Assembly: GCA_963804995.1 (NCBI GenBank)
Contig: CAWDSK010000003.1
Location: 896,001-960,000 of the forward strand
From: an uncultured Acidobacteriota bacterium
GTDB lineage: Bacteria; Acidobacteriota; Terriglobia; UBA7540
DNA: 64,000 nucleotides
Direction: 5' to 3'
Part shown: one piece after another, positions 25,665 to 46,214 of the stretch
How positions within the stretch are numbered: position 1 is the first letter of the stretch
Layout: every line of letters begins with the position of its first letter
Notes under the pieces: model-generated
Seen by the model: the letters and a program-made list of their open reading frames with translations, nothing else
Database searches by the model: none
What the model was told of the DNA's origin: nothing
Position numbers and translations under genes: made by a program

Positions 25665-26385
25665 AGTCGGGAGATCGGGAGATCGGTTGATCCGGCGATC
25701 GGGTGATCGGCCGATTTGTGAATGGTGATTCGTGATTGGCGATTTTCGAAGTCGGCATTTGATTCATCTTCTCACCTGACACCGCCGATAACCGAAGCGG
25801 GGGAGTGTGGGCCGGCGGGGGCTGAGGATCGGGAGATCGGGTGATCTGGAGATCGGGTGATCGGGTCATTTGTGAATGGCGATTGGTGATTGTCGATTTT
25901 CGATGTCCGCATTTGATTCATCTTCTCACCTGAGGCCGCCGATAACCGATTTGGGGGAGTGTGGGGCGGCCGCGTCAGACAATCGGGTGATTTGATCATC
26001 GGTCCATGGCGAAAGTTCATAGCCCTCTCTCGGGGGAGAGGGTGGACCGCCGCCGGCGTACTCACCAGCCGGGGCGGGACGGGCCTACGCCCACCGAAGG
26101 GGCACTTGGAAACTGTAAACAACTTCGGCTCCGGCCCGCAGGCGGGTGAGGGGTCAAGCCGCTTGTCACGGGCCACTGAATTTGCCTCATCCCTGGCGTC
26201 GAACCCGCCGATAACCGAAGCGGGGGAGTGCGGGCTGCCGGGGGCTGAGGATCGGGAGATGCGGTGATCCGGAGATCGGGTGATCGAATGATAGGAGCAG
26301 CAAGTTACTGCCAGGCTCCGGTCGGCCGAATTGAGCTCATGTTCCTGTGCCGTCCATCCGATTACTGATGTGGGGAAGTGCGTCA
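25665..26385. repeat. Complex direct repeats: GATCGGGT/GAGATCGG octamer runs plus CCGATAACCGA-N-GGGGAGTG motif
   Basis: ~154-bp unit duplicated (motif at 25782 and 25936); further motif copies at 26205, 26358 and 27301. Confidence 0.85.
26021..26155. repeat. CCCTCTCCC/GGGTGAGGGG palindromic repeat copy with internal insertion
   Basis: Similar to 33479-33557, 45570-45640 and 45922-45995. Confidence 0.8.
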
Positions 26386-26649
26386 CGGCCGGGCGATTTT
26401 CGGTAGATGGGGTTCGTGGCTCGCCGCGGGGCTTCCGGGCCGTTGCGGTTTTCTGTCCCCGCCGTGACAACCGGTGGCCGAGGTAGGGGGCTGCGGCGGG
26501 TCGGTTGGGGCAGCGGGCCTCACCGCTTTTGACCTCCCGTCCAACGCCTGTCGCGCCTTCCAGCTTCGCTCCGAACATCACGTCACCCGTTCCTTTAAGC
26601 CCTCTTCTCGCCGGAGGGTTACTTCTTTCCTCGTCCCTGTCATCTTCAG

Positions 26650-27029
26650 TAACTCCATATATTTTCATGAACATATTGGCATACCGCCTATAACTAGTTT
26701 CTTTTCATCAACATCTTGGCCTGCCCCAAAACGGTCATTTTTTCTACATGTGTTTTCAACAACATATTGGCAGTTACCTTCATATTTCCCCCCCGCGTTT
26801 TTCGTGACCCTATTTCCACAGAAATCAATTAACTCTTCTTGTTTCAATTAGATGGATTTATGCCAAGTTTCCTCCCTCCATCGTTAAACCCTTTTATTTC
26901 TGTAACATATTGGCCTATTGCCCCGTGTAAGTTCCCGCAGATTCGATTACTCTTCTCTTTTCAATGAGATACATTTTGCAAGGTTTTGCTTCTTTTCCCT
27001 AACCCCTTTCCTTTCCGAGACATATTGGC
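26650..27029 (-). repeat. Array of 7 degenerate AT-rich ~28-bp motifs (minus strand ATGT-N3-TGAAAA-N7-8-GTTA)
   Basis: ACAT/AGAT cores at 26671, 26711, 26762, 26850, 26905, 26967, 27020; most followed by ATTGGC. Confidence 0.8.
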
Positions 27030-27070
27030 ATAGGGTCGTGAACCAACGTGATGCCGACGTGACGGAATCC

Positions 27071-28001
27071 ATCCCGATCCTATCGGGACGCCCACCTTGG
27101 GCGAGGTGAACTCGCCGTTACGCCCTCCATTTGACCACCACCTTCCGCCCGTCTGGGGAGCCTGATCGGGGGCAGGCTGGCGCATAGCGAGCTCAGCTAT
27201 GCGATCCACGTCAATCACCGCAGCCAGCGAATGATTCGTCCGTCTTGAGCATGCTTGATCCACACTAAATCGCAGGGCTGCGCTCGCCCTGCGCCAGCCC
27301 CCGATAACCGATACGGGGAAGTGTTCGGGGAGGGCTCTAAAGGTCGGCGCTGGTTCGCCCCGATTTATGGTGTAATCCGCGTATTTTCGGCCCACAATCC
27401 CGATCGATTGCCCTCCATAGTCGCAAAACTCGGGAATATTCTGCAAAAAGCCTGAACAATAGCCTGACAAATTGTCACCCTCTCCTGTGTTTTCATACAC
27501 ATCCCCGGAGGTTCCTTCATTTTTAACATCTCTACGGGTCAGTGCCTCTTCCCGGACGTTTGTCGGCGTGTTCGTGAAGCATGGCAGACCCCCGATCTTG
27601 GGGTCCGCGGTTCTTCGAGGGCTGCCTGGACACATCAGGGCGCTAATCTTCCTCACCTCTATTGTGCTCTTAGTCGACTGGCCTATGTCAATAGGCAATG
27701 TATGTGTTTGGGCTACCGGTAGCCCAAAAATGCAAGGCGGGCAGCAAATTGTCCGAAAAAAGGTGGCAGGGGCACTCTTGGCTGTGTCGATATGCTCGAA
27801 CATCGAGCCGCATTCACAGGCAGGAGTGCCTGTGCTACCGTGCGGGCTCGGCGCTACTTGTGCTGAGGATAGCCGCTTGTATCTACCCTGTGCTCTTCCA
27901 TGGGTCGAACCAACACGCCGAAAGCTGACGCGTAGTGATTCAATTTGGCGCCGTAGCGGCGAGTTTACCTCGCCATTGGCGGCGTCCCGATAAGGCCGGG
28001 A
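27071..28001. repeat. Two inverted ~51-bp REP-like elements (27071-27122 and 27952-28001)
   Basis: atcccgatcctatcgggacg..ggcgaggtgaactcgccgttacg versus cgtagcggcgagtttacctcgcc..cgtcccgataaggccgggac. Confidence 0.75.
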
Positions 28002-28148
28002 CAGGCTTCGCCGCCTCGATATGAAACTGAATCTCCACACAAATCATCGCTGGACATATTAATAAGTGCTAAGATAAACCCCGTCGAGAAGCTAGACTCT
28101 TGCCAGGCCAGTCAGTCAGCCACACCGCCACCCCGTGAGGAGGTGTGC

Positions 28149-31100: not shown

Positions 31101-32678
31101 ACGATCAATGTCAGCTTCCAACCCACTTCCTCCGGGCCGCTTACTGGCGCGCTGACTCTGACGGATTACACCGCCACCAGCCCGCAAACGGTAACCCTGA
31201 CCGGTACAGGGCTTACACCGGTGGTCAGCCTCTCGGCAACGAGCCTGACATTTGTGGGGCAAGGAGTTTCAACCACCAGCGCCTCGCAGCCTATCACGCT
31301 AACCAACACGGGGACTGGTTCGCTGACTTCCCTCACGATCATGGCCAGCGGTGACTTTGCCCAGACGAACAACTGCACTGCCCCGGTTGCCCCGACCGCC
31401 GGATGCACGATCAATGTCACGTTCACGCCCACGGCCCCCGGGAATCGAGCGGGCGCAGTAACACTTACGGACAGCGCAGCCAACAGCCCCCAAACGGTCA
31501 GCCTGAGCGGCACAGGGCTGGCGCCGGTGGTCAGCCTCTCAGCATCCAGCCTGACGTTTGCCGGACGATTAGTTTCGACCCCCAGCGCCTCGCAACCCAT
31601 CACGTTATCCAACGCCGGCCCAGGTGTGCTGACCTCCCTCACGATCGCTGCCAGCGGTGACTTTGCCCAGACGAATAACTGCACTGCCCCGGTTGCCCCG
31701 ACCGCCGGTTGCACAATCAATGTCACGTTCTCGCCCACCGCTATTGGCAATCGAACGGGTTCGGTGACGCTGACGGACAACGCGACCAACAGCCCCCAAA
31801 CGGTCAGCCTGAGCGGCACAGGGCTGGCGCCGGTGGTCAGCCTCTCAGCATCCAGCCTGACGTTTGCCGGACGATTAGTTTCGACCCCCAGCGCCTCGCA
31901 ACCTATCACGTTATCCAACGCCGGCACAGGCGCGGTGACCTCCCTCACGATCGCGGCCAGCGGTGACTTTGGCCAGACGAACAACTGCACTGCCCCGGTT
32001 GCTCCGACCGCCGGTTGCACGATCAACGTTACATTCACGCCCACGGCGACTGGGAATCGAACGGGCACGCTGACCCTGACGGATAACGCGCCGGGCAGTC
32101 CGCAATCGATTCAGCTTTCCGGCACAGGGATGGACTTTGCGATGTCAAGTTCCGCGATGAGCACTACCGTGGCGGCGGGGCAAACGGCAAATTACAGTAT
32201 CACGGTGACGCCCGAGGGCGGGCTGAACCAAACGGTGAGTCTGACGTGTAGCGGCGCACCCACGCTCGCAACCTGCACGCTCACACCCGCTTCGGTCGCG
32301 CTCAATGGATCGGGCTCCGCGCCGGTGGCGGTGGCCGTCTCAACCATGGCGGGGACGATGGCGCCACCCCTGGGAAAAGTTCCGCCACCGACGTTCCCGG
32401 GATTCAGGGGAATGCTCTGGCTGTACGCTCTATTGCTACTGGCGGGCCTGGCGGCATTGGCCGGGGCCAAGAAGCCTCGAGCCGCCTACGGGCTTGCTTT
32501 GTGCCTGGCAATGGTAATGCTCTGGAGCGCCTGCGAATTAGTGCAGGCGCCCCCAGCCACCCATACCCCCGGTACGCCCGCAGGTACTTTCCAGCTAGTG
32601 GTAAACGCGACGGTGACCTCCGCCGCCTCGTCGACGAAAATCACGCACGCGCTCAACCTCTCCCTGACCGTGCAGTAG
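28149..32678 (+). CDS. Large surface protein: SBBP beta-propeller repeats, five ASH/choice-of-anchor-D Ig-like domains, C-terminal TM-hairpin
   Basis: LPLSFEVNEGQ; NYFLGNDPKKWRTNVPTY; repeated YSTYLGGS..GIAVDSSGNAYVTG; C.I.V.F.P...G.RTG.LT.TDNA..SPQ; GAGGAGG RBS. Confidence 0.9.
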   Translation: MFHTPRDFGARKAPLSPQAACVLIGLMLGFLILETNPNLPGNQPSSPSAASPTRLVANYGKLPLSFEVNEGQTDRAVKFLSRGSGYRLFLTGDEAVLALNKSSVVSGQSSVGTKLKPGIGVRESIAQPRQGTTDHRPRTTTSVLRMRLVGANAAAKTVGQEELPGKVNYFLGNDPKKWRTNVPTYAQVKYQDIYPSIDLVYYGNEGGQLEYDFVVAPGADPGAIRFALSGGLEVGQSAVGSGIPDQKLKIQGLTSKIESTGDLVIETAGRDIRLHMPLVYQSPSVGGQRTTDNGLRTVDCHYVLTASNQIRFALGAYDRTKPLVIDPVLSYSTYLGGSIFGYSNGIAVDSSGNAYVTGFTLSPDFPTVNPLQATYAGSLSGDSYDVGDVVITKLNATGSALVYSTYLGGSGNDTGYGIAVDSSGNAYVTGYTTSPDFPTVNPLQATLIEGSDAFVAKLNTTGSALVYSTYLGGSPFDTGYGIAADSSGNAYVTGQTYSTDFPTVNPLQATLQGNSNAFVTKLNAVGSAVYSTYLGGGGDRGNGIAVDSFGNAYVVGSTISSDFPTVNPLQATNLGGTVTVFVAKLNATGSALVYSTYLGGSMRDYGNGIAVDSSGNAYVTGETFSTDFPTVNPIQATCGAPHLGCDDAFVAKLNAAGSALVYSTFLGGTSANGGGNPGLGGNASINEGAGIAVDSSGIAYVTGSTVSLTFPIASPIQATCGSCEGVSTAFVAKLNAAGSALLYSTYLGGSLNDQGFGIAADSAGNAYVTGLATSTNFPVTPGAFQPTLHSGDLCGGAYITPCTSAFVAKLSPAPYTNLSGSSLSFGSVLVDATSPTQSVVLTAGGDAQLNLTSITASGDFALVTTGTSCPYGGGPIAFQATCTIDVSFKPTATGNRTGTATITDNAPGSPHLIQLSGTGIVSAPNISPMSLSFSGQLVGTSSASQPVTFTNTGPVALNISSLTISGGWTQSNNCLPSVAANASCTINVSFQPTSSGPLTGALTLTDYTATSPQTVTLTGTGLTPVVSLSATSLTFVGQGVSTTSASQPITLTNTGTGSLTSLTIMASGDFAQTNNCTAPVAPTAGCTINVTFTPTAPGNRAGAVTLTDSAANSPQTVSLSGTGLAPVVSLSASSLTFAGRLVSTPSASQPITLSNAGPGVLTSLTIAASGDFAQTNNCTAPVAPTAGCTINVTFSPTAIGNRTGSVTLTDNATNSPQTVSLSGTGLAPVVSLSASSLTFAGRLVSTPSASQPITLSNAGTGAVTSLTIAASGDFGQTNNCTAPVAPTAGCTINVTFTPTATGNRTGTLTLTDNAPGSPQSIQLSGTGMDFAMSSSAMSTTVAAGQTANYSITVTPEGGLNQTVSLTCSGAPTLATCTLTPASVALNGSGSAPVAVAVSTMAGTMAPPLGKVPPPTFPGFRGMLWLYALLLLAGLAALAGAKKPRAAYGLALCLAMVMLWSACELVQAPPATHTPGTPAGTFQLVVNATVTSAASSTKITHALNLSLTVQ
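31185..32125 (+). repeat. Intragenic 306-bp tandem repeat, 3 units
   Basis: caacagcccccaaacggtcagcctgagcggcacagggctggcgccgg... at 31481 and 31787, near-identical DNA. Confidence 0.9.
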
Positions 32679-32735
32679 GGAGCTGGAACACTCGGCGTGC
32701 TGATACAGGGTGTAGGTGTGCGAAGGGTACACCGC

Positions 32736-33422
32736 TCAAACGGCAAACTTGTAGCCTTGGCCGTGGACGGTCACGATGAACTTGGGTTGTTTAGGGTCGA
32801 TTTCGAGCTTCTGGCGTAGCCAGGCAACGTGGACATCCACGGTGCGGGTGGAAGGAGCTGAGCTATAGCCCCAGACTTCCCGCAAAAGTTCATCGCGACT
32901 GAGGGTTCTGCCCCGATGCTCGATGAGGTAGCGCAGGAGTTCAAATTCCTTGAAGGAAAGCTCGGCACGTTTGCCATCGCGCAGAACTTCCGTGCGCTGC
33001 AGGTCCACGCGAATAGGTCCCACGTCGTAGAACTCCACCCCGCCGCCCATTACCTCAGCGCCGCGCCGGAGCAAGGCTTCGACGCGCGCCAGCAATTCCA
33101 CCATTTCAAAGGGCTTGGTAAGGTAATCGTCGGCTCCGATTTTGAGCCCTTTAACCTTGTCACCCATCTGGGTCCGGGCGGTGAGCATCAGAATGGGCGT
33201 CACAATGCCGCGCCGCCGCAGCTCGCGGCACACCTCAAAACCCTCCATGCCGGGCAGCATCAAATCGAGGATGAGGAGATCGAAGCGACTGCGCGTGGCT
33301 AGCTCCAGGGCCTCAGCGCCATCGCCCGAGGCTTCGACCGCATAGCCTTCCTTGCGCAGGCGGTCGCTCAAGGTGACAACCAACCCGGGTTCGTCTTCCA
33401 CTAACAGGATGCGCGCACTCAT
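32736..33422 (-). CDS. OmpR/PhoB family response regulator
   Basis: LLVEDE, DLMLP, GADDYLTKPF, RTVDVHVAWLRQK. Confidence 0.95.
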   Translation of the reverse strand: MSARILLVEDEPGLVVTLSDRLRKEGYAVEASGDGAEALELATRSRFDLLILDLMLPGMEGFEVCRELRRRGIVTPILMLTARTQMGDKVKGLKIGADDYLTKPFEMVELLARVEALLRRGAEVMGGGVEFYDVGPIRVDLQRTEVLRDGKRAELSFKEFELLRYLIEHRGRTLSRDELLREVWGYSSAPSTRTVDVHVAWLRQKLEIDPKQPKFIVTVHGQGYKFAV

Positions 33423-33478
33423 ATCAGCTTAGGAATCTCCTCTTAGGGGTTGCGCAGGTCCGTTGGGATCGGCTAAGT

Positions 33479-33557
33479 GACCCCCTCACCCGGCCCGCCC
33501 CGGCTGATGAAAACGCCGGTTGCGGTCCACCCTCTGTCGCCGCGGCGACCGAGGGTT
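33479..33557. repeat. CCCCTCACCC palindromic repeat
   Basis: accccctcacccggcccgccccggctgatgaaaacgccggttgcggtccaccctct. Confidence 0.8.
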
Positions 33558-33639
33558 ATAAATTCAAACTACCGTCCCCTGAAATTGCATATGCGAACAG
33601 TATTGCCACTTACACATAGCACCCCAGAAAGGCAAAATC

Positions 33640-35476
33640 TCACTCGGCGACGGGAAGGTGCAAGGTAAAAGCACTTCCCTCCCCGAGGCTGCTGGCCACG
33701 GTCAGTTTTCCTCCCATCGCCTCCACCGCTTCCTTGGCGAGACTCAGGCCCAGCCCCGCTCCATGTTTCTGCGAGGCGCGCGCGGCGCTTCCACGATAGA
33801 AGGGTTCAAAGATGTGCGGCAGTTCCTTCGGCTCAATCCCCTGCCCCCGGTCTTGCACGGTAATCAGAACCTCGCCGGCCTCAGGTCCCGAGCCCGGGTG
33901 GGCGCGAATGGCCATCCACTGGCCACCCGCACCATACTTCAAGGCATTGGTCATGAGATTTTGCAGGCAGCGGCCCAGGGCTTTGGGATCAGCCATGACC
34001 AGGGAAGATTTGGCGCAATCTCCTTCTCGACGGTGAAGCCGTTAGCCGTAGTCAAGTGGGCCAGGTCCGCGACGGCGGAATCAATGGTCTCCTCGACGGG
34101 GACGGGTTGCCGCTGGTAGTGCCCGCCCTCCCCGCGCGTGGCGGCAAAGAGCAGAACCTGCTCGATCATGGCGGCCAGGCGCTTGCCCTCGGTGCGAATG
34201 AGTGTGCCGTACTGTTTAACTTGCGGCCCGGAATCCACCACGCCGTCCGCAAGGTTTTCCGCCGCGGAACAAATCACACTCACCGGGGTGCGCAACTCGT
34301 GCGACACGCTGGCCACAAAATCCATCTGGAGCCTGGCAAGCCTCTGAACGCGCTGGCTCCAGACGAGGATTAATACCATGCTGACGGCCAGAACCAGCAA
34401 GGCTCCCAACCCCGTCAGCAGGTTGCGCCTCCAAGTGATGGCCACAGCCTGGCGCAAAGAGCCACTGCGGTGCCGGACCACCAGTTGCCAGTTGGCGGCC
34501 GCGGCGTCTGCAAAGATGGGAACGGGGAAGAAACCGCGCAGGGGCCCACCCAACTCACGCGAGGAGCCACCCGGCTCGCGAGGGGAGCGATTGAAATCTC
34601 CCCGAGGTGTCCGGAAGCGTCCGCGCCGTTCAGTAGGATTCCCTCGCCGGAGACCCTCCGGCCCCGGCTCAAAATCGGGACGGCGACGTGGGCCAAATAG
34701 AAATAGCGTCGCGTCCGCCGAAGCCACAAGATCCGCCGAAGGGTGGGGCTCCGACGCGTAAAGGAAATTAGGCGGGGCCGCGGCGTCTGCGATCGCTACT
34801 TGGTAAAAGAGACCCTCGGTTCCACCAAAGTAACGCTGCGCGAGTTCCGGAATGTAAACCTTCAGGAAGTAATCCCGGTTCAATTCTATGATCGCGAAAC
34901 CAGCCGAGGCGCAATCCGGCGGGCAACTGGCCTGGGGCGAAGCCGTTGTGAGGAGGGGATGGACCATGGCGAGCGACTGGCCCCGCAGTCGCCATCCAAA
35001 ATCAAAGCCCCGCCATGAGGGGACGCCTGCCAGGTCCGACATGTCACAGAGATCCCCGAGCCGAGATGGACATGCTTCCGCTTGAAAGCTGTAGGTCTGG
35101 GGATTGAACTCAGGAACGTATAACTTCCATTCTTTGGCTTTTCCCAGAGATAGAATTTCCCCACCAAGTCCCGGTGCTCGGAGGATCGTCCCCAGTCACC
35201 ACAATGCTGGGTATAGAGCGTCTCAAGATTATCCCCCGAGCCGAATCCTAGGTTCGAAAAGCCTCCACAGACCCCGGCCAGTTCAGCTCTCAAGCTCTCA
35301 CGAAACTCATTCATGCCTGTCTGGAGCGTGGCCTGCTGCCGCTGCCAGTCAGCGTTGCTGAGCTGATGGGTCCACCGGTACTGCAGAACCGCGAGCACGA
35401 CGAGCAGCGTGCCGAGGGCCACGATGAGGCCCAGGGATGCCAGCGACTGTTTGAGTTTGAACCCCATAACTTTCAT
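33640..35476 (-). CDS. Membrane sensor histidine kinase, split by two single-base deletions (~35111, ~34003)
   Basis: N-terminal TM, second TM, SHELRTP H-box, NALKY, DRGQG, EPFYR, GAGLGL spread over three consecutive frames. Confidence 0.85.
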
Positions 35477-36469
35477 AGACGTATCGGTCGCTCAACGCGC
35501 TACATGGGTTTCCGGCCTGACGTCGCACCGCAGGGTCGAAGGAAGAGGACCCGACCCTGAAGTTCACTCCTGCCATTTTACACCCGGCGGCCTGTCCCCA
35601 GGTTATCCGCCGGGAGGCCAGCGGGTACGAAAGACGGGCAGGGCGGGGATTGCCCACAGGCGTACAGGGCTTTCTCCGACACGGCGAAAAGTTCGGCGGG
35701 CTTACTTCTCATGGCAGGTCCTTAGGATATTGGCAGAGAGAATATACTGGCTACCGCCTCTGGTGACGGGCGTTTCAGGCTGGGGTCGATGCCAGTCGAA
35801 CCCGCGCTCCTAGCGGATGCGAGGGGCATGGAGAGGAGGGCTGACCTACCCCGAATTCTTCTGGTTTACCGGTTGGTTAAGCGGTGCGACCTCCCACAAT
35901 CATCCTCCGGTTAGAATCTTCCTTGGCGCGGGTTCACAAACTCTTGTTGTATTTGGTATAATCCTTGCGGTATTGTTCTGTGCGCGGGACTTGGTAAGAG
36001 ATTCACTGCAATCCAAAATCCAGGCTTTCTGGTCAGAGTGACGCAGAGTAGCGCCGCAGGGAAGCGTTAAGATTTTTGAAAAAAATTCACATGCCGCTTC
36101 AAACCCCAACGGGAGCGATACGCATCTGACCTTGCGGTGGTCACTGACCGGACCATCTTACACTGGGGAATTTGAATGAGCCGGCCGCTACTCGCAGCCC
36201 CGGCAGAAGGGGTGGCGCGCAGTTCCGGGTTTCCCTACTGCGCACACCGCGCAAGCCTTATGACCGGAGAACAAGAAGTGTGGTCCGGTGTCAACAAGTT
36301 TGGTTTTCGGCTTTAGAAGGATGCAACGGATCGTCATTCAAGCCACCCGACCAGGATTAGAAGTTGGCGAGGTGAAGGGCGCGCCCGGTTCTGTGATCAG
36401 GAAGCCCGCCTGCCTAGGGTCGGTGACTCCTCTTCAACAAGAAACTCGTTTGGGAAAGGGATACACGAA

Positions 36470-37648
36470 GTGAAGCCAATTTATACGCTCCTCCTCGTCA
36501 CGCTGTTGATGGCACATCCTGGAGCCGCCCAATCAACGCCCGATCAAAAACCCGCCGCGCCGGATACTACGGCCGCACCGGCTGCGCCCCCCGCGCCAGA
36601 TAAGACTGCCGCGCCTGACAAAACCGCCGCGCCGGAAGAAACCGAGAAGACGGGAAAACTCCACAAGCTGAATGTATTCCATAAGCGGAAGAAGACCCCC
36701 AAGGCGGAAAAATCCGCCAAAGCGGAGAAACCTGCCAAGGCGGAGAAACCCGCCAAGGCCGAAAAAGCCAAGGCTGAAAACCCCGATTCCCCCGGACCCA
36801 CTGCCTTTGTGCAGGTCGAAGGTAGCCACTTTAATATGGGCACGGTCCTCACCTACGACTTCAACTTCGGATACAGGTTCAATGAGCATGTCTCCGCCGA
36901 TTTCGGCATTCCGATCTATTCCACTCGCACTCCGTTCTCCGTCATCACCACCAAAGATTGGCGGGATACGACGATCCTTGGGGCGCCGTACATTGACGTA
37001 CGGTACGACACCAAGCGCGGCGACACGAACATCACCTCCATCCTGACGGGATCGGCCGGATTCAATATGGTCAAGACTTATTCCAACGGCCGGATGACAG
37101 TGGACTGGTTTAACCACTTTGATCGCAACTACCAGATCATGAACTACGACGCCAAGTTCACACCCTTTCTGAATTTCGGCTTCGGCACCGGCACGGTAGA
37201 CCGGCAGGTGATGCCCCGGCCGTACGAAGTCGCCCGCCCCTATGAAACCCTGGGCTACATCGGCAATGGTGAAGTCGGCGGGGATTTCACGGTCTGGAAA
37301 CATTACAAGTTGGGAGGGTCCGCCTACGGCCTTACCCCGGTGGGACCGCAGAAGATCTATAGCCGGCTGGTGTCGCCGGATTCGCTTTTGGGGGGCGATG
37401 GGCACCACAACCGTTTTTGGGATGAATTCTTTGAAACAGGCGGCGAGTATGTCAACACCTATGGCGGGGGGCCCTCGCGAATTGCCCGTGACAATGGCTA
37501 CGCCGCATGGCTTGAGGTCACCCGGTACAAAAATCTTAGCATTGAGGTCGCCTATACGAGGAGCGTGCATTACGATTATGGCGCCGCTTTTATCATGGTG
37601 CGCTTTAACTTGACGAACATTTTGCGGAATTTGACGACCGGCGAGTAG
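36470..37648 (+). CDS. Secreted protein with low-complexity linker; putative outer-membrane beta-barrel
   Basis: Signal peptide, PDKTAA and KPAKAE repeats, then alternating aromatic/hydrophobic strands (TYDFNFGYRF, LSIEVAYTRS, FIMVRFNL). Confidence 0.7.
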   Translation: MKPIYTLLLVTLLMAHPGAAQSTPDQKPAAPDTTAAPAAPPAPDKTAAPDKTAAPEETEKTGKLHKLNVFHKRKKTPKAEKSAKAEKPAKAEKPAKAEKAKAENPDSPGPTAFVQVEGSHFNMGTVLTYDFNFGYRFNEHVSADFGIPIYSTRTPFSVITTKDWRDTTILGAPYIDVRYDTKRGDTNITSILTGSAGFNMVKTYSNGRMTVDWFNHFDRNYQIMNYDAKFTPFLNFGFGTGTVDRQVMPRPYEVARPYETLGYIGNGEVGGDFTVWKHYKLGGSAYGLTPVGPQKIYSRLVSPDSLLGGDGHHNRFWDEFFETGGEYVNTYGGGPSRIARDNGYAAWLEVTRYKNLSIEVAYTRSVHYDYGAAFIMVRFNLTNILRNLTTGE

Positions 37649-37760
37649 CGGACACGTCGCCTCAAGACACATAGAAGCAAGAGCATGATTCCGTGGGTCG
37701 CCCGTCGCAAGACTGCTATCCAACCAACCGAGCGACCCCGAAGTAACGACAAGAGGACCT

Positions 37761-40700
37761 TTGAAAACTGAGAGTCGGTTCAGATTATTCCTCCTTCCTT
37801 TCGTGGTTGGAATTTGCCTGGTGCATTCCAGCCCGGGGTGGGCTGGCGACCCCGCCTCCCCCGACAAGATTCTTGCGCCTTCCCCCCTCCGGTCAGCTAG
37901 CTTGCCGCTCGGTTTCGAGGCCAACCAGGGGCAGGTGGATGAACAGGTCAAATACTTAGCCCGGGGACAGGGTTACACACTGTTCCTGACCCCTCGCGCC
38001 GCAGTACTCGGCCTACGCAGCGAGGGCGCCGGAAAGCCCACCGAATGGCTGCGCCTTGCCCTGGAAGGCACTGCCGCCGCACCCGCTATCACCGGGGAAA
38101 ACCCACTCCCTGGCCAGAGCCATTATTTCGTAGGCAACGATCCGGCCCGGTGGCGGACCAATATCCCCACTTTTGCCCGGGTCCGCTACGAGCAAGTATA
38201 TCCAGGGATAGATTTGATCTATTACGGCCGGCAAGGACGCCTGGAAAACGATTTTGAAGTGGCCGCCGGAACCAATCCCAAAAGGATTTCCTGGCGGCTG
38301 GAAGGGGCGAAACAGGTCCGCGTTGACTCGACTGGGGACCTCGTCCTGACCGTGGGCGGAAATGAGGTGCGCCTGCAACAGCCGCGGGCGTATCAACTGG
38401 ACGGAGAGCAAGAGCGGGAAATCCCCATCCGTTACCGGGTTCATGGTCAGAGAGTCAGCTTCGCGCTGGGCAAGTATAATCGGCATCAGAAACTGGTCAT
38501 TGACCCTGTCCTTACTTACTCAACTCTCCTCGGCGGCAGTGGTGGCGACATCGCGTACGGCATGGCCGTCGACTCATTGGGCAACACCTATGTTACGGGC
38601 GTCACGGGCTCCATCAACTTCCCCACCACGGCCACCGCTTTTCAGGCGACGTACGGGGGTGACGGCGACGTTTTTGTGACCAAGTTCAATCCCACTGCCA
38701 CCGGGGTCCTCTTCTCGACTTACCTGGGCGGCGCGGGAGCTGACTCGCCCAGCGGCCTCCTGCTCAACTCATCTGGAAATATCTATATCGTTGGTTCCAC
38801 TTCATCGTTGAACTTCCCCACCACGGCCACCGCTCCCCAGCCAGCTTATGGCGGCGGTGGAAGTGATGCCTTCCTGGTGGCCCTCAAACCTTCTGGCTCA
38901 TCGCTGCTTTACTCCACCTATCTGGGAGGAACCGCGGCGGATTACGGCATGGCACTGGCGCTCGATGCCACCGGGAATGCTTACATCACTGGGTATACGC
39001 TCTCCACCGACTTTCCCACCTTTAATCCTATCCAGCTTGGCAATGATGGCTCCTATGATGCCTTCGTGGCGGAGGTCGACCCCACCGGAACGAAATTGCT
39101 CTATTCCACCTACCTGGGAGGTTCGAGCGCCGATTATGGCACCGGTATCGCGGTCGACGCCTCCGGGAATATTTATGTCGGCGGGTACACATTCTCAACG
39201 AACTTCCCCACCCAAAGCGCTTTTCAAAGTACGCTGGCCGGTGGCTCCGACATCTTCATCACTGAGCTGAATCCGGCCTCCTCGACATTAGTGTTTTCCA
39301 CGTATTTGGGGGGAAGCTCGAATGAAACACTCTCCGCCCTCGTTCTAGATTCACACGGAAGCATCTACCTGACGGGCGACACGCAATCCAACAATTTCCC
39401 TGTGACCGCCAATGCTTACCAGGCCACGAATCACGGTGGGCCAGGAGACGCTTTTATCACCAAGCTCACACCCGGCGCCTCAACTCTGGTTTTCTCGACG
39501 TATTTCGGGGGCAGTGGGGTGGACCACGCGGCTGCGTTTGCGATCGACTCAGCGGGGGATGTTTACCTGACAGGATTCACGCAGTCGACTGACTTTCCTC
39601 TGGTCGATGCATTCCAAAAGATTCTGGGCATCGCCGGCGCAGGCTCCTGCGGGTCAACTTCCCTGATGAATTCGCCCCCCCCGGTGGTTTGTGCTGACGC
39701 CTTTGTCACCAAGTTCAACCCCTCGGGGGTCCCTATCTATTCCAGCTATTTGGGCGGAGAAAATACGGACGCCGGCCAGGCGATTGTGGTTGACTCCTTG
39801 GGCTCGGCCTATGTGGCGGGCGGTACGGAGTCACCCAACTTCCCAGTCACTCCTGGTGCCTACCAGTGGTCCTACTTGGGCGGCGACACGTTTAACAACG
39901 TTTTCGTGGTTAAGATCGGTCCTCAGGACGCCCCCTCCTTGGCGTTAAGCCCTCAGCAGATCAACTTTGGGAATCAGGCGCTCAACACCCCCAGTAATCC
40001 AACTACCGTTACGTTAACGAATGAGGGCAGTGCGGCGTTGGCGATCCAGGGTATCACTGCGGGCCAAGGGTTCTCCCAAACCAACACCTGTGGCACTTCG
40101 CTAGCGGCGGGGGGAAGTACGTGTAGTCTCCAAGTTACCTTCACGCCTACCCAAGCCGGTCCGCAAACCGGTGAAGTCACTATTACTGACAACGCGGCGG
40201 GCAGCCCCCACTTCATTACAGTCTCGGGGAGCGGAATCCTCTCGGCCGGGTCATTGAGCGTGTCGCCGACCACGCTGGCATTCCCGGCACAAGCCGTCAC
40301 CACCACCAGCTCTCCGCAAACGGTACTGATTGTTAATAATGGAACGTTGGCCGTCACCATTACCAACATCGCTGCAGCAGGATTCTTCGAACAAACAAAC
40401 ACCTGTGGGACTCTCCCCCTGGTCCTGAACGTGGGCTCTTCCTGCACGGTCTCCATAACCTTTACACCCACCGGGAGCGGAAACTTTACGGGCAGTCTGA
40501 CCATCACATCCAACGCTGCGAATAGTTCGTCAGTGTCGCTTTCCGGGACCGGCATTCCCATCTTCAATCTTTCTGCCAATACGCGGTCAAGCGTCCTTGT
40601 CATCGGCACCACCTCCACAACGTTCACCGTTTCTGCCTCGGCCCCGAGTTCATTCATCGGAAGCATCTCACTCGCCTGCAGTGCGTCGGGTTCCACATCA

Positions 40701-41420
40701 ACCACCTGCAGTTTCAGTCCGGCCGCGATCACGGGTGGGCAGTCCAGCACGGTCACGGTGAAAGGCCTCTCGGCAAGCACGGCGAGTCCCTTGAATGTCA
40801 CGATCACGGGGACCTATATAAATCAATCCGCCTCCGTTGCCCTCACCATCTTTCTTGCGGATTTCGCACTCTCCGCCACACCCTCGGGGGCTACGGTCAC
40901 GGCCGGTAATAACGCCACTTACACAATTACCGTCACGCCCTCGAATGGGTTTAGTCAGGTCGTGCTCCTGAGTTGTGGCAACCTGCCACAAGATGCTGTC
41001 TGCTATTTTGCGCCGCCTGGTTTAACTCTGAACGGTTCAACCTTTGCCACGAGCGTCCTAACCATAACCACCGTAACGCAGTCGGGAGTGGTGCGCCAAC
41101 CCCCGCGCGGTGGTATTCCACCCGGATTCCGTTGGTGGGCGTTGATGCTGGCGACATTAGTTCTGGTAATCGGGTGGGCGGCAGGCGCCGGCAGGTTGGC
41201 ACGGGGTCTTCGGCCGCGGCTTCGGGTGGTGGTTTTGTTAACTGCAATCATCCTGGTGGCCTTGGGAGTGGCGTGTCAAAATTATTACAACCCGATCAAC
41301 ATCACTCCCGTGGTGAATGGCACCCCTTCAGGGAACTTCACCATCCCGATCATCGGAACTCTGGGAAGTGACAATAGCGTTAGGCGGGCTACAACGGTCA
41401 ACCTCTCAGTTGCACCGTAA
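37761..41420 (+). CDS. Large SBBP/Ig-like surface protein, paralog 2
   Basis: Signal peptide; LPLGFEANQGQ; YSTYLGG repeats; ASH-like domains; C-terminal TM-hairpin ending LGVAC. Confidence 0.9.
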   Translation: MKTESRFRLFLLPFVVGICLVHSSPGWAGDPASPDKILAPSPLRSASLPLGFEANQGQVDEQVKYLARGQGYTLFLTPRAAVLGLRSEGAGKPTEWLRLALEGTAAAPAITGENPLPGQSHYFVGNDPARWRTNIPTFARVRYEQVYPGIDLIYYGRQGRLENDFEVAAGTNPKRISWRLEGAKQVRVDSTGDLVLTVGGNEVRLQQPRAYQLDGEQEREIPIRYRVHGQRVSFALGKYNRHQKLVIDPVLTYSTLLGGSGGDIAYGMAVDSLGNTYVTGVTGSINFPTTATAFQATYGGDGDVFVTKFNPTATGVLFSTYLGGAGADSPSGLLLNSSGNIYIVGSTSSLNFPTTATAPQPAYGGGGSDAFLVALKPSGSSLLYSTYLGGTAADYGMALALDATGNAYITGYTLSTDFPTFNPIQLGNDGSYDAFVAEVDPTGTKLLYSTYLGGSSADYGTGIAVDASGNIYVGGYTFSTNFPTQSAFQSTLAGGSDIFITELNPASSTLVFSTYLGGSSNETLSALVLDSHGSIYLTGDTQSNNFPVTANAYQATNHGGPGDAFITKLTPGASTLVFSTYFGGSGVDHAAAFAIDSAGDVYLTGFTQSTDFPLVDAFQKILGIAGAGSCGSTSLMNSPPPVVCADAFVTKFNPSGVPIYSSYLGGENTDAGQAIVVDSLGSAYVAGGTESPNFPVTPGAYQWSYLGGDTFNNVFVVKIGPQDAPSLALSPQQINFGNQALNTPSNPTTVTLTNEGSAALAIQGITAGQGFSQTNTCGTSLAAGGSTCSLQVTFTPTQAGPQTGEVTITDNAAGSPHFITVSGSGILSAGSLSVSPTTLAFPAQAVTTTSSPQTVLIVNNGTLAVTITNIAAAGFFEQTNTCGTLPLVLNVGSSCTVSITFTPTGSGNFTGSLTITSNAANSSSVSLSGTGIPIFNLSANTRSSVLVIGTTSTTFTVSASAPSSFIGSISLACSASGSTSTTCSFSPAAITGGQSSTVTVKGLSASTASPLNVTITGTYINQSASVALTIFLADFALSATPSGATVTAGNNATYTITVTPSNGFSQVVLLSCGNLPQDAVCYFAPPGLTLNGSTFATSVLTITTVTQSGVVRQPPRGGIPPGFRWWALMLATLVLVIGWAAGAGRLARGLRPRLRVVVLLTAIILVALGVACQNYYNPINITPVVNGTPSGNFTIPIIGTLGSDNSVRRATTVNLSVAP

Positions 41421-41525
41421 GCAGCCGCCCCTTATTACATACGCTCATCGCGCTGATCAACGCCAGGCGAGTGCGAAAAAAAGAGAAAGACTATCCAAGA
41501 TTGATGAATTCCGAGGAGGCCCGTC

Positions 41526-44500
41526 GTGAGTGGAAGTAGCCGTTTTGCCATCTGTTCCCTGGGCGCAGACCAGAGTACGAGTAAAAGACGCGCACGCATC
41601 TCCCGTTGGTTGCTGTTGATGGCAATTTTGCTGGGCGCGGCATTTGTTCAGAAAGATCGAGGCGCTTTCACTCCCCCCACCCAACCTCGTTCTAACGCCC
41701 AATGGGCGCGCCTGTACGCTGCGCTTCCGTTGAGCTTTGAGGCGAACCGGGGGCAGACGGACCCCAGCGTGAAGTTCCTCTCGCGGGGACGCCGCTCCAC
41801 GTTGTTCCTTACCGGGCAGGAAGCTGTGCTGACACTGCGGAATCAGCCGGCAGCAGCCCAAAGTCAGAAGTCACGTGTCAGTCCTCGGCCCCCAGCCACT
41901 CCTGACTCTGTTCTCCGTTTGCGCTTGCTCGGTGCAAACGCCGACGCCGCCGTGGAAGGAAGCGACGAATTACCCGGCAAAGCCAACTACTTCCTCGGCA
42001 ATGATCCCAGCAAGTGGCGCAGGAATGTTCCAACCTACGCCAAGGTCAGGTACCGGAACCTTTATCCCGGGGTCGATCTGGTTTATTACGGCAACCAAGG
42101 CGGGGAACTCGAGTATGACTTTGTGGTAGCCCCCGGCGCTGACCCAAACAGCATCGCACTGGAAGTCGGGGCGCACGGCCACTCCCCCCTCCGGATCGCC
42201 GAGAATGGCGATCTCCAGGTTCGCCTGGAGGGTGGCGAGGTTAGCCTGCACCGGCCGACCATTTACCAGCCGTCCTCCGGTAATCTTCAAATGATTGCGA
42301 AGGACGGACCACGGACACCGGTTGAGGGGCATTACATCCTCACTGCCGCAAACCAAGTTCGCTTTGCCCTAAGCGCCTATGACCACACCAAGCCGCTGGT
42401 CATTGACCCCGTTTTGGCTTACGCCACCTACGTGGGTGGCAGTGGAGGTGACATCGGGTACGCTATCGCCGTCGATTCCTCCTTCGACGCCTACGTGGCG
42501 GGCTTTACGGCCTCTTCGAATTTCCCGACCAGCAGCGGCGCGAATAAAAAGGCGTACGGAGGTAATGGCGATGCCTTCGTCCTGAAAATGAATTCCTCCG
42601 GGACTGCCTTGCTCTATTCCACCTATATCGGTGGCAGCGGTGCAGACAGCGCCACAGCCATTGCGGTCAGCGCCGGCAATGCCTTTATCACCGGCAGCAC
42701 CAACTCCACAGACTTCCCGATCGCCCCCAATACGTCGATCGCGAAGGCCTTCCAGACCACTTACGGAGGCGGCGCGACCAATGCCTTCGTCGTCCAACTC
42801 GATACCACTGGATCAAGCCTCGTCTACTCCTCCTATCTGGGCGGTAACGGTGCAGACGCAGGCCAGGGGATCGCGGTGGATTCCGCCGGCAATGCCTACA
42901 TCACCGGCTCGACGCAATCTTCAAACTTTCCCGTTCTCAATTTCTTCCAACAGTACAGCGGCGGCTCCACGGATGCTTTTGTTACCAAGGTGAATTTCAC
43001 CGGCGAGGCGATTCTTAATTCCACCTATTTGGGAGGTTCCCAAGCGGATGTCGCCCAAGCTATCCAGGTGGACACTTCCAGCCCACCCAATATTTACCTT
43101 GCTGGCTACACCTATTCGCCGAACTTCCCTACGGCCCCTGCCACTCCCCTCCAGGGAACGATCGGGGGCGGAGCGGATGCTTTCGTAGCCGAGCTCAAAG
43201 GTGATTTCTCAGCCCTTATTTTTTCGACTTTCTTGGGTGGCTCAAGCTATGACCAGGCTAATGGCATCGCCTTGGACAGTTCCGGCAACGTCTACGTTGC
43301 GGGCTATACGTCTTCGACTAATTTCCCCACTGTCCTCGGGTCATTCCAGACCGCGCTCGAAGGCTCCCAAAACGCTTTCATTTGCAAATTGAATCCCGCG
43401 GGGTCCTCCCTGCTCTACTCGACGTATCTTGGCGGTAGCGGGACCGATCAAGCGAACGCCATCGCCGTGATACCCAGCGGAGCCTCCGCTGGAGTTGCGT
43501 TCGTTACGGGCTACACGTTATCCAGTAACTTCCCCACACACAATCCAATTCAAAGCGTCCTGGGACTCAGTAATAACACCTTTTGCCAGGGGCTTCCCTG
43601 CGCCGACGCTTTCGTCACCCAGCTCAATGCCGCCGGAAATGCCTTGACCTACTCCACCTACCTGGGTGGCAATGGACCCGACTTCGGCCAATCCATCGCG
43701 GTAGATAGTACCGGCGACCCCTACATCACGGGCAGCACATCTTCCACTAATTTCCCGGCCGTTTCCCCGATCGTTCCGGGAACCAATACCGTTTCGGGAC
43801 CCCCTTATGTGCCCCCCTATAAGTCCACGCTGACCGGTGCGTCGGGCAACGCGTTTGTGGCCAAAATTGACGTCGCCAATACCCCCACGATCTCCATCAC
43901 TCCTGCCAGTTTGACCTTCGGCAACGAAACTTTAAGCGTCACCAGCGCCTTGCAGCAGATAACCATCGTCAACCCGAGTACCACGAACCTGGCGATTACC
44001 TCGATTCAAATTGCACCGATCGGCACGTACAACACCATCTTTACGGAGACGGACAACTGCGTGGGGACCATCCCCGCGGGCGGCGGCTACTGCACGATGA
44101 ACGTGGCCTTTACGCCCGCCTACGCCGGTGCGGTGACCGATCAAATTACCATTACTGACAATGCGGGCGGAACGGCTGGCACCCAGCAAACCATTCCCCT
44201 GAGCGGATCAGGGGTGACGGCCGCAACGGCAGTCACGGTCGCACCCACCAGCCTTTCCTTCTCCAACCAGAATGTGGGGACCGTCAGCCCACCCCAAAGC
44301 GTTACCATTACCAACACAGGTACGGCCACGTTGAACATCACCCAGATTTCAACCAGTAGCCCTGAATTCACGCAGACCAACACCTGCAGCGCCCTGCTCG
44401 ACACCCTGGCCGTCGGGCAAAGTTGCAGCGTCAGCGTGACTTTCTCGCCCATCGCCAGCGGCACACGCAGCGGAACTTTGACTATTGCGGATACCGCCGT

Positions 44501-45407
44501 AGGCAGCCCCCAAACCATCGCTCTTTCCGGAATAGCGCTCGCCGCTTTCTCGCTGACTACCCCCAGCTCATCCATCACGGTGAACCCTGTACTGATTGGC
44601 GCCACCCAGACAACCTTCCTCATCGAGGCGATAGGGTCCACGAGTTTCAACGGCTCCATCACCCTGGCCTGCTCCTCTGGCACCACGTGCGCCTTCAGCA
44701 ATAACCCCATCTTTATTGGCAAAACCAGTACGATGACCGTCAGCAACCTCACGACTTCGATGCCCAACCCCTACAACTTTTCAGTTACCGGGACCAGCGG
44801 TTCACAAAACACCTCGTTTCCAGTAAGTCTTTTGTTTCAAGATTTCACGCTTTCGGCCACCCCGGCGCTCGTCACGATTCAGGCAGGAGCGACTGCGGGT
44901 TACACGATCATCGCCAACCCCCTCAACTTGTTCAACAAGCAAATAACACTAACTTGTAGTACCGGACAGCCGCCCGCTTCCACCTGCGTCTTTTCGAATG
45001 TCTCCCCCACTCTGAACGGCACCAGCGCCACGAACATTTCCCTTTCTCTCCAAACTGTGAAATATGTTGCTCCAACCCATGCCCCGCCTGGCTACCCCTT
45101 CGGCAAACTTCCACCGATGATATTGGGGGTCCTGGGGCTCTTGGCGCTTGCCTCTCTGGCGTTGGGAGTCCGGCGACGCGCCCACGGCGGCCGGCTTGGA
45201 ATGACCTGGCTGGGTGTACGACTGGCCATAATCAGCCTCATTATGGTGCTTGATTTAGCGCTGGGAAGCTGTCGTCCGAACACCCTGCTGCAGTCCGGCA
45301 CAACCACGGGCGGCTACACGATTACCATCAGCGGCACGTTGGTTGCGAATACCGCGGTGGTGCGGACAACGAGGCTGAATCTGGAAGTGACTTCTTCCAT
45401 ACCTTAA
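41526..45407 (+). CDS. Large SBBP/Ig-like surface protein, paralog 3
   Basis: LPLSFEANRGQ; YSTYLGG repeats; ASH-like domains; TM-hairpin ending LALGSC; GAGGAGG RBS. Confidence 0.9.
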   Translation: MSGSSRFAICSLGADQSTSKRRARISRWLLLMAILLGAAFVQKDRGAFTPPTQPRSNAQWARLYAALPLSFEANRGQTDPSVKFLSRGRRSTLFLTGQEAVLTLRNQPAAAQSQKSRVSPRPPATPDSVLRLRLLGANADAAVEGSDELPGKANYFLGNDPSKWRRNVPTYAKVRYRNLYPGVDLVYYGNQGGELEYDFVVAPGADPNSIALEVGAHGHSPLRIAENGDLQVRLEGGEVSLHRPTIYQPSSGNLQMIAKDGPRTPVEGHYILTAANQVRFALSAYDHTKPLVIDPVLAYATYVGGSGGDIGYAIAVDSSFDAYVAGFTASSNFPTSSGANKKAYGGNGDAFVLKMNSSGTALLYSTYIGGSGADSATAIAVSAGNAFITGSTNSTDFPIAPNTSIAKAFQTTYGGGATNAFVVQLDTTGSSLVYSSYLGGNGADAGQGIAVDSAGNAYITGSTQSSNFPVLNFFQQYSGGSTDAFVTKVNFTGEAILNSTYLGGSQADVAQAIQVDTSSPPNIYLAGYTYSPNFPTAPATPLQGTIGGGADAFVAELKGDFSALIFSTFLGGSSYDQANGIALDSSGNVYVAGYTSSTNFPTVLGSFQTALEGSQNAFICKLNPAGSSLLYSTYLGGSGTDQANAIAVIPSGASAGVAFVTGYTLSSNFPTHNPIQSVLGLSNNTFCQGLPCADAFVTQLNAAGNALTYSTYLGGNGPDFGQSIAVDSTGDPYITGSTSSTNFPAVSPIVPGTNTVSGPPYVPPYKSTLTGASGNAFVAKIDVANTPTISITPASLTFGNETLSVTSALQQITIVNPSTTNLAITSIQIAPIGTYNTIFTETDNCVGTIPAGGGYCTMNVAFTPAYAGAVTDQITITDNAGGTAGTQQTIPLSGSGVTAATAVTVAPTSLSFSNQNVGTVSPPQSVTITNTGTATLNITQISTSSPEFTQTNTCSALLDTLAVGQSCSVSVTFSPIASGTRSGTLTIADTAVGSPQTIALSGIALAAFSLTTPSSSITVNPVLIGATQTTFLIEAIGSTSFNGSITLACSSGTTCAFSNNPIFIGKTSTMTVSNLTTSMPNPYNFSVTGTSGSQNTSFPVSLLFQDFTLSATPALVTIQAGATAGYTIIANPLNLFNKQITLTCSTGQPPASTCVFSNVSPTLNGTSATNISLSLQTVKYVAPTHAPPGYPFGKLPPMILGVLGLLALASLALGVRRRAHGGRLGMTWLGVRLAIISLIMVLDLALGSCRPNTLLQSGTTTGGYTITISGTLVANTAVVRTTRLNLEVTSSIP

Positions 45408-45477
45408 ACCCTAGAAGCTTTGCTCGGCGCTGCGCCCCGGACTACTCGTCCGGGGCGCGCTGCCACCGTCGGGAAAA

Positions 45478-46057
45478 GACCCCTCACCCGACCTCGTCCC
45501 TCGGCCACCCTCTCCCCAAGGGAGAGGGAAAGGCTTTCACCGCGCGGTAGCGCCGCCAGAGAAACCCCCGCCCTCTCCCCGGGGAGAGGGTGGACCGCCG
45601 CCGGCGTTTTCATCAGCCGGGGCGGGACGGGTGAGGGGTCTTTTCCCGGCCAACGAACCGTTACTCCAGAAGATGTCAAACTCTTACTGCCTCCCCGGCA
45701 GAGCCGGGGGACCTCCCGACGAATCAGGCAGTGCCCTCCTCTAACCACCCTGATCAACGCTTGATTGTTTTCCCGACCCCGTGGGTAAGTGTTATTGGCA
45801 TCCCGCGAATGTGATAATATTCGTTCTCGCCGTAAGTATTCTGAGGCAGCATCCTGGAGTGAAGACCTGGGTCACTTTGGAAGCTAGCGTGGTGTCCCGT
45901 GTTAGAGTTGACAATGGGTAGAACCCCCTCACCCGTCTGGCCTCGGCTGATGAGAACGCCTCGGCCAGCCACCCTCTCCCCCAAAGGGGCGAGGGCAAGA
46001 GAATTAACTCTCCCCTCGGTCGCCGCGGCGACAGAGGGGCTGGGGGGTGAGGGGGTC
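45478..46057. repeat. Cluster of CCCCTCACCC/GGGTGAGGGG palindromic repeats (4 copies, inverted pairs)
   Basis: 45478-45530, 45570-45640, 45922-45995, 46007-46057. Confidence 0.8.
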
Positions 46058-46214
46058 GGACAGCCTTGTCAAATATTAACCGGGACACCACACTAGCAAT
46101 ATTGATGTAATACGGTAATCTCCGCACGGGGTACCATCACGGATGGGATGCGTGATGTTACCTTTTCGTGGCCGCTTCAAGTTACACCCACTTCACATCC
46201 CCGAGAGGATGACT

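Follow-up and report, generated by a model that had tools for sequence, protein, structure and literature searches.

Invert-tail domains at the C-termini of three paralogous Terriglobia proteins: a putative internal lipoprotein signal within a split Ig fold

Architecture of the window proteins and their catalogued family

The window analysed here is a 64,000-nucleotide stretch of an Acidobacteriota genome (G000, contig C3, positions 896001-960000). It encodes three large paralogous proteins, P1, P2 and P3, whose last immunoglobulin (Ig)-like domain is split by a membrane hairpin (Table 1). Translations of the open reading frames (ORFs) revealed two hydrophobic segments (TM1 and TM2) in each split domain, with a basic loop between them. 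A Cys closes the second segment and is followed by a short tail. This Cys is residue 1464 in P1, 1172 in P2 and 1249 in P3, and lies 47, 47 and 44 residues from the respective C-terminus. A preliminary description of the same DNA had noted this C-terminal sorting architecture in all three paralogs, and the translations bore it out. The coordinates of the split domains of P1 and P3 were obtained by arithmetic from residue numbers, and signal peptidase (SPase) I sites at the N-termini were judged by eye.

Table 1. Coordinates of the features in the window, and of invert-tail proteins elsewhere that carry additional domains
Feature	Position	Strand	Description
P1, 1511 aa	28143..32678	+	N-terminal hydrophobic segment, DUF7948, SBBP propeller, five choice-of-anchor D/ASH Ig repeats, split Ig domain and invert tail
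P1 split Ig domain	32133..32675	+	Strands A-E, Pro-rich linker, TM1, basic loop, TM2, Cys, then a tail of 47 residues contributing the two final strands
P1 TM1	about 32400-32471	+	
P1 TM2	about 32484-32531	+	Cys codon 32532
Predicted outer-membrane β-barrel gene, 392 aa	36470..37648	+	Signal-peptide-like N-terminus; FapF/COG4313-like (weak evidence); first gene of a three-gene unit
P2, 1219 aa	37761..41420	+	Signal peptide with apparent SPase I site, DUF7948, SBBP propeller, two ASH repeats, then an intact and a split Ig domain
P2 split Ig domain, N-terminal part (strands A-E)	40860..41069	+	AlphaFold model residues 3-72
P2 membrane hairpin	41121..41267	+	TM1 41121-41186, Arg-rich loop, TM2 (putative internal signal peptide II h-region) 41211-41267
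P2 Cys and tail	41274..41417	+	Cys codon 41274, ortholog-conserved tether, strand F 41331-41363, strand G 41370-41414
P3, 1293 aa	41526..45407	+	N-terminal hydrophobic segment without clear SPase I site, DUF7948, SBBP propeller, two ASH repeats, then an intact and a split Ig domain
P3 split Ig domain	44841..45404	+	TM1 about 45099-45176, long basic loop, TM2 with Asp about 45222-45269
P3 Cys	codon 45270	+	Next residue a conserved Arg; tail of 44 residues
Invert-tail proteins with extra domains or segments after the Cys	G000 C3:1106293-1110363; G304 C9:610817 and C9:615997; P0314		

The last Ig domain had been described as stopping early. The interruption was confirmed, but not the marked stop point, as one further strand follows (residues 65-72 of the P2 model). 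The hairpin is therefore located between strand E and the last two strands. The uninterrupted domains were said to end in equivalent strands, and intact copies of the same repeat indeed have both strands directly after strand E. This equivalence is drawn from profile matches, reading of the sequences and a fold match. The intact form occurs in tandem arrays, is often protein-terminal and has no clear Pfam family (for example G000 C2:97604 and C6:929909, and P0241). A profile of the repeat matched 42,517 cluster representatives at E ≤ 0.001, split and intact forms together.

The tails correspond to the NCBIfam family NF058595 ("invert_tail"; release 20.0, curated cut-off 37 bits), a "lipo-invert" putative C-terminal anchoring domain that is known to us from its name and description line. 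P2 scored above the cut-off throughout, with 44.8 bits in the whole-protein scan, 49.8 bits among the aligned split domains and 51.1 bits in the genome search. P1 was unmatched in the whole-protein scan and reached 53.1 bits in the genome search. P3 remained below the cut-off, with 20.7 and 27 bits, respectively; since its architecture is identical, it counts as a divergent member of the family. In P2 and P3 the matches ended at most 5 residues from the C-terminus; the P1 match ran up to the stop codon. The NF058595 model covers the same element as the window tails, from strand E (P2 model residue 65) to the C-terminus, so strands A-D of the split domain lie outside it. Pfam offered no family for the split domain: the P2 domain was unmatched, and the best-scoring family gave no more than weak matches, in 6 of 71 members.

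The feature is real, and it belongs to an already catalogued putative anchor family rather than to a new one. The preliminary description knew of no characterised system like this. That statement holds for the literature searched, but the element already has an NCBIfam model, whose name implies the same idea. A full-text search for "invert_tail" or NF058595 returned no paper, with most subscription papers outside its coverage. Searches of titles and opening abstracts on internal lipoboxes, Acidobacteria sorting signals, SBBP proteins and strand complementation by lipoproteins found nothing on the element.

Conservation of the cysteine and predicted fold

We aligned 71 split domains, comprising the three window domains and 68 of 70 fetched loci (one locus was unmatched, and one was removed because of a long insertion). 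All 71 matched NF058595 at E ≤ 0.01. The Cys was the sole invariant column (71/71), while the mean column identity was 21%. The preceding residue was Gly, Ala or Ser in 71/71, the hydrophobic (h-) region spanned 12-22 residues (median 17), and the tail was 34-55 residues long. These domains had been picked with a model that contains the Cys, which biases the set toward it. The Cys test was therefore repeated with a profile built from strands A-E only, which is blind to the helices and to the Cys. This profile found 18 domains in the source genome, six of them with a hairpin, and all six hairpins ended in [GAS]-Cys (five by pattern, P3 by eye). Three other genomes, selected for many tails and with [GAS]-Cys counted by eye, yielded 68 domains and 49 hairpins, 49 of which ended in [GAS]-Cys. 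The four genomes together gave 55/55. The same profile recovered 370 domains in homolog proteins, and the motif was present in 82/82 hairpins, mostly those of P2 orthologs (81 by pattern); five of the 87 domains originally flagged were removed as intact domains flagged on marginal hydropathy.

As a background, we considered 961 internal helices of this genome with at least two preceding basic residues, a set that includes four of these tail proteins. Only 48 (5%) ended in [GAS]-Cys. We also scanned 150 multi-repeat proteins, with 1,469 repeats in total, and found 20 hairpins with a detector that may overlook some. All 20 lay in the last repeat and all ended in [GAS]-Cys (19 by pattern). The conservation of the Cys, which the preliminary description had put forward for checking, was upheld by these profile searches, with the small residue at -1 kept throughout.

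The surroundings of the Cys follow the Lgt/LspA substrate pattern, as had been proposed. A basic n-region, an h-region, Gly, Ala or Ser at -1 and the Cys at +1 are all present, and a tether follows; canonical lipoproteins, which depend on Lgt, LspA, Lnt and Lol, have the same layout (PMC8689077, PMC9360617). In 118 of 120 sequences used for loop, tether and helix statistics, the loop contained 3-9 basic residues (median 4-5), and it was free of acidic residues in 106. The lipoboxes had been called imperfect, and none of the three window proteins matches the strict pattern [LV][ASTVI][GAS]C. P1 has Trp at -3, P2 has Gly at -3 and P3 has Gly at -2, with Ala, Ala and Ser at -1, respectively. Across the 71 domains, 34 fit the strict pattern (Ile allowed at -3) and 61 a relaxed one. 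The N-terminal lipoprotein candidates of this genome (n = 58) were likewise loose at -3, with Leu in 34% and Val in 21%.

AlphaFold2 was run on the P2 domain with the 71-row alignment. The model had a mean predicted local distance difference test (pLDDT) score of 86, with values of 96-98 over residues 1-70. Helices were placed at residues 90-111 and 120-138, and the tail formed strands at 160-170 and 173-187 (pLDDT 91-98). The best structural match was the Ig-like domain of the sialidase 1EUT, a continuous segment of 99 residues (chain 404-502). Of these, 98 were aligned across model residues 2-187 (Z 13.0, root-mean-square deviation 1.8), although the N-terminal part comprises only 72 residues. 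About 26 tail residues would thus belong to the sandwich. The tail was expected to complete the sandwich in a prediction of the last ~190 residues, and this single-chain model placed it there.

Whole extra ASH (Ig) domains were found inserted after the Cys in three proteins. The two seen in full (G000 C3:1106293 and G304 C9:610817) still close with the two final strands at the terminus. We also considered whether the tail occurs naturally as its own gene. Seven short-ORF matches, one of them beside an insertion sequence (IS)-like gene, were likely frameshifts, contig ends or decayed remnants, and none was a clean stand-alone lipoprotein.

Distribution of the tail and the barrel-P2-P3 operon

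The occurrence of the tail was surveyed with the NF058595 model in 200 genomes of the class and in a separate phylum sample of 151 genomes; the genomes are related, so the counts are not independent. The invert tail was present in 29/29, 31/31 and 32/32 genomes of three Terriglobia families, with 1-21 copies each, and is near-universal in these families. It was also found in 1/1 and 1/3 genomes of two small families, and in 8/104 across the other eight. In the phylum sample, 17/151 genomes matched, and the five beyond the class were weak and mostly partial. Five exceptional genomes were rechecked: four contained true split tails and one contained intact domains only. G257, G278 and G319, from mostly tail-less families, each carry a single true copy, but two of the three assemblies are fragmented and possibly contaminated.

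P2 and P3 follow the gene for the 392-residue protein. Among 14 related barrel loci, P2 came next in 12 and P3 was present in 10, and every miss was at a contig or locus end. In 20 further loci, P2 followed all nine close barrel orthologs (39-72% identity), and P3 followed in 7/7 that reached far enough. The remaining 11 loci held distant barrel homologs (26-32% identity), none of which (0/11) adjoins a P2- or P3-like gene. The barrel gene, P2 and P3 thus form a conserved operon, and P1 is outside this unit. Judging from the sequences, the operon appears to be a variant of the family that we have not found noted before; together with the secretin contrast described below, it is what the window adds to a tail already modelled by NCBI curators.

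The 392-residue protein is probably an outer-membrane barrel. It had no Pfam match in the window protein scan, but an Atlas feature match to PF13557 (0.93) was obtained. The best Foldseek rows were to FapF (E 8.6e-5, TM-score about 0.4), from a poor model with a pLDDT of 43.7 and about 14 predicted strands. The FapF/COG4313 channels of PF13557 are 12-stranded and contain a plug. FapF passes unfolded peptides (PMC5557850) rather than folded proteins of 120 kDa, and the likeness comes from a low-confidence model. The barrel gene occurred in 17/29, 7/31 and 5/32 genomes of the tail-rich families and in 7/26 of a tail-poor one. On this patchy distribution, together with the distant homologs that have no P2- or P3-like neighbor, a general translocation role of the barrel for every tail was rejected. 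Since the barrel does not track the tail across the class, it would be a partner of P2 and P3 rather than a general machine.

The residues following the Cys also set P2 and P3 apart from the family norm. In the 120 sequences, position +2 was Gly in 62% and Ser in 15%. P2 orthologs instead had Glu, Asp or Asn at +2 in 17/17 (one mis-parsed row was left out), with Tyr at +4 in 13, while P3 orthologs had Arg at +2 in 16/16. The tethers are therefore ortholog-specific, although the orthologs are related and the conservation may partly reflect descent. It is tempting to speculate that the two tethers contact each other or the co-encoded barrel.

Beside the operon, a sensor histidine kinase at window positions 33640-35476 (minus strand) appears as three overlapping ORFs next to a response regulator that is intact (32736-33422). 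These breaks could stem from the assembly. A single 656-residue kinase ortholog lies upstream of the barrel gene at locus L145, and a regulator lies there at L157 and L158. The two-component pair thus shows partial synteny with the operon.

Proposed processing and alternative explanations

Based on the sequences and the model, we favor a mechanism in which the Cys is lipidated, the chain is cleaved and the tail completes the fold, at a probability of roughly 60%. The positive-inside rule makes TM1 a stop-transfer helix and TM2 a re-export signal. Sec would export the body, TM1 would stop transfer, and the basic loop would stay inside. TM2 would then re-export the tail, so that both Ig halves could fold together outside. 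TM2 would serve as a putative internal signal peptide II whose Cys is very probably lipidated by Lgt, and LspA would quite likely cut before the Cys. The resulting lipopeptide of 45-48 residues is predicted to stay bound and to supply the last two strands of the domain. LspA cleavage by itself would not detach the large chain from the hairpin. The tether formed by the lipopeptide would therefore be of consequence only with a second cut that removes the hairpin. This cut, at or before TM1, would free the body; it is the weakest step, with even odds in our estimate, and was absent from the preliminary description, whose interpretation is partly supported. The freed two-chain protein, lipid-anchored at its C-terminal end, could then move to the outer membrane.

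The predicted product differs from a canonical lipoprotein in being a two-strand fragment of another chain's domain, released from an internal signal that lies close to the C-terminus, behind a stop-transfer helix. It resembles donor-strand complementation in chaperone-usher pili and in type V pili such as Mfa4, where an incomplete β-sandwich is completed by strands of a later-separate chain. Type V pilins also start as lipoproteins. In the invert tail, however, two strands are given by the same gene, the domain can fold before the cut, and nothing suggests polymerisation.

Several observations weigh against this mechanism. The lipoboxes are loose, being strict in none of the window proteins and in only 34 of the 71 domains. 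The signals of P1, P2 and P3 are internal, whereas Lgt/LspA substrates carry theirs at the N-terminus, and the literature searched held no report of these enzymes acting on a helix ~1,200 residues from the N-terminus, nor any experiment on the invert tail. TM2 of P3 and of most of its orthologs (13/16) contains Asp, Glu or Asn. Lnt is spread over two adjacent ORFs (G000 C6:65474-66702), through a frameshift or an assembly error. There is no signature motif before TM1, as no position exceeds 48% identity in the 26 residues preceding the basic cluster of the 120 sequences. Rhomboids were present in 47/47 genomes of the class panel with 2-6 copies and counts that do not track the tail. The releasing step can therefore only be inferred. 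Without a clear SPase I site, P1 and P3 may in any case remain on the inner membrane, and P3 orthologs mostly lack an obvious site too, which speaks against surface export. The AlphaFold model is of a single chain and hence bears on the fold, not on the two-chain state after cleavage.

In favor of the mechanism, this genome has one LspA, one clear Lgt and two LolA-family genes. With only one LspA, one clear and one weak Lgt-family match, and ordinary-looking gene contexts, a dedicated Lgt or LspA was rejected. The weak match (G000 C3:1290856-1291584) scored 32.7 bits, and the ORF directly upstream of it presumably encodes a phosphatidylserine decarboxylase. A dedicated rhomboid was not supported either, the copy numbers in the 47 genomes being uninformative. 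Canonical GspD was above the cut-off in 2/26 tail-bearing and 16/20 tail-less genomes of the panel, a contrast confounded by lineage. Canonical type II secretion was rejected as the route of the tail because of this anti-correlation, and the invert tail could replace a type II-dependent anchoring route. The region G000 C3:466000-479000 carries a divergent gene cluster that resembles type II secretion and includes a secretin bearing TPR. This secretin was found class-wide, in 25/26 tail-bearing and 18/20 tail-less genomes (44/47 overall). In the tail-rich genome that lacked it, secretin matches occurred in pieces, so the absence is uninformative.

The main rival to lipidation with release holds that the Cys is lipidated, and perhaps cut, while the body is kept on the hairpin. 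The proteins would then be inner-membrane scaffolds facing the periplasm, and the lipid would pin or orient the last domain. The missing motif ahead of TM1, the lack of a candidate dedicated protease (rhomboids being profiled by count) and the scarcity of canonical GspD in tail-bearing genomes would agree with this, as would the N-termini of P1 and P3, which look like possible uncleaved anchors. The Glu, Asp or Asn at +2 of all P2 orthologs resembles the Asp+2 rule, by which lipoproteins of Escherichia coli are retained in the inner membrane. However, the family mostly has Gly or Ser at this position, and with two helices already in the membrane a lipid would be superfluous, but the Cys is apparently invariant. 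Pro was present inside TM1 in 75/120 sequences, compared with 26/120 for TM2, and Pro in a helix is a trait of intramembrane protease substrates. The divergent secretin in nearly all tail-bearing genomes also speaks against retention. We therefore regard retention as rather unlikely.

A dedicated sortase-like intramembrane protease of the CPBP, rhomboid or exosortase type, with the Cys modified without Lgt or LspA, would place the tail beside the MYXO-CTERM and GlyGly-CTERM signals. Like the MYXO-, JDVT-, GlyGly- and PEP-CTERM elements (bioRxiv 10.1101/2023.06.07.544157), the invert tail is C-terminal, multi-copy and lineage-wide on varied large exported proteins. Its TM1 and basic cluster are laid out like the hydrophobic and basic parts of such signals, where a helix is followed by an Arg cluster and some members have an invariant Cys. 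Its many copies per genome are nearly all-or-none by lineage, and five rhomboids plus one exosortase-family gene were found in the source genome. The order of the parts differs, however. In the tripartite CTERM signals the Cys motif is placed ahead of the helix, with the basic cluster at the very end of the protein (same preprint). Here no motif precedes TM1, a second helix and a tail of 34-55 residues follow the basic cluster, and the Cys comes after the second helix and obeys the SPase II rule at -1. MYXO- and GlyGly-CTERM proteins are said there to require type II secretion, whereas canonical GspD was mostly not found in tail-bearing genomes. Single true copies in mostly tail-less families (two of the three in the possibly contaminated assemblies) also fit poorly with a dedicated enzyme, and we consider one improbable. 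Slightly less probable still is that the hairpin is a mere membrane anchor in an Ig loop and the Cys an unmodified relic of an old lipoprotein-gene fusion. Such a topology works without processing and the loose lipoboxes would be expected, but neither the Cys nor the small residue at -1 is ever lost, whereas adjacent columns drift, and the tether is usually rich in Gly and Ser, as in true lipoproteins.

Lipidation followed by release can be extended to a third lipid-anchoring route in Terriglobia, which we offer as tentative and on balance doubtful. The lipopeptide would grip its parent after loss of the hairpin, and the P2 (acidic or amide) and P3 (Arg) tethers would dock on or thread the FapF-like barrel, forming a three-part surface complex. 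If this is true, surface proteins of up to several thousand residues would gain a lipid at their C-terminal end. Should the favored mechanism hold, it would overturn the view of Lgt and LspA as enzymes of N-terminal signals only. It would also explain the anchoring of up to ~20 large exported proteins per genome in a dominant group of soil bacteria, and would provide a portable module of ~190 residues for C-terminal lipid anchoring.

Two further observations were made in this genome. A 521-residue protein (C3:1486438-1488003) has three hydrophobic segments, the last being a basic-led helix that ends in Ala-Cys and is followed by 182 residues; its sequence makes a second, unrelated internal lipobox possible. 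Within the window, the intergenic regions 25700-28100 and 45420-46130 contain similar translated fragments, suggesting a dispersed repeat.

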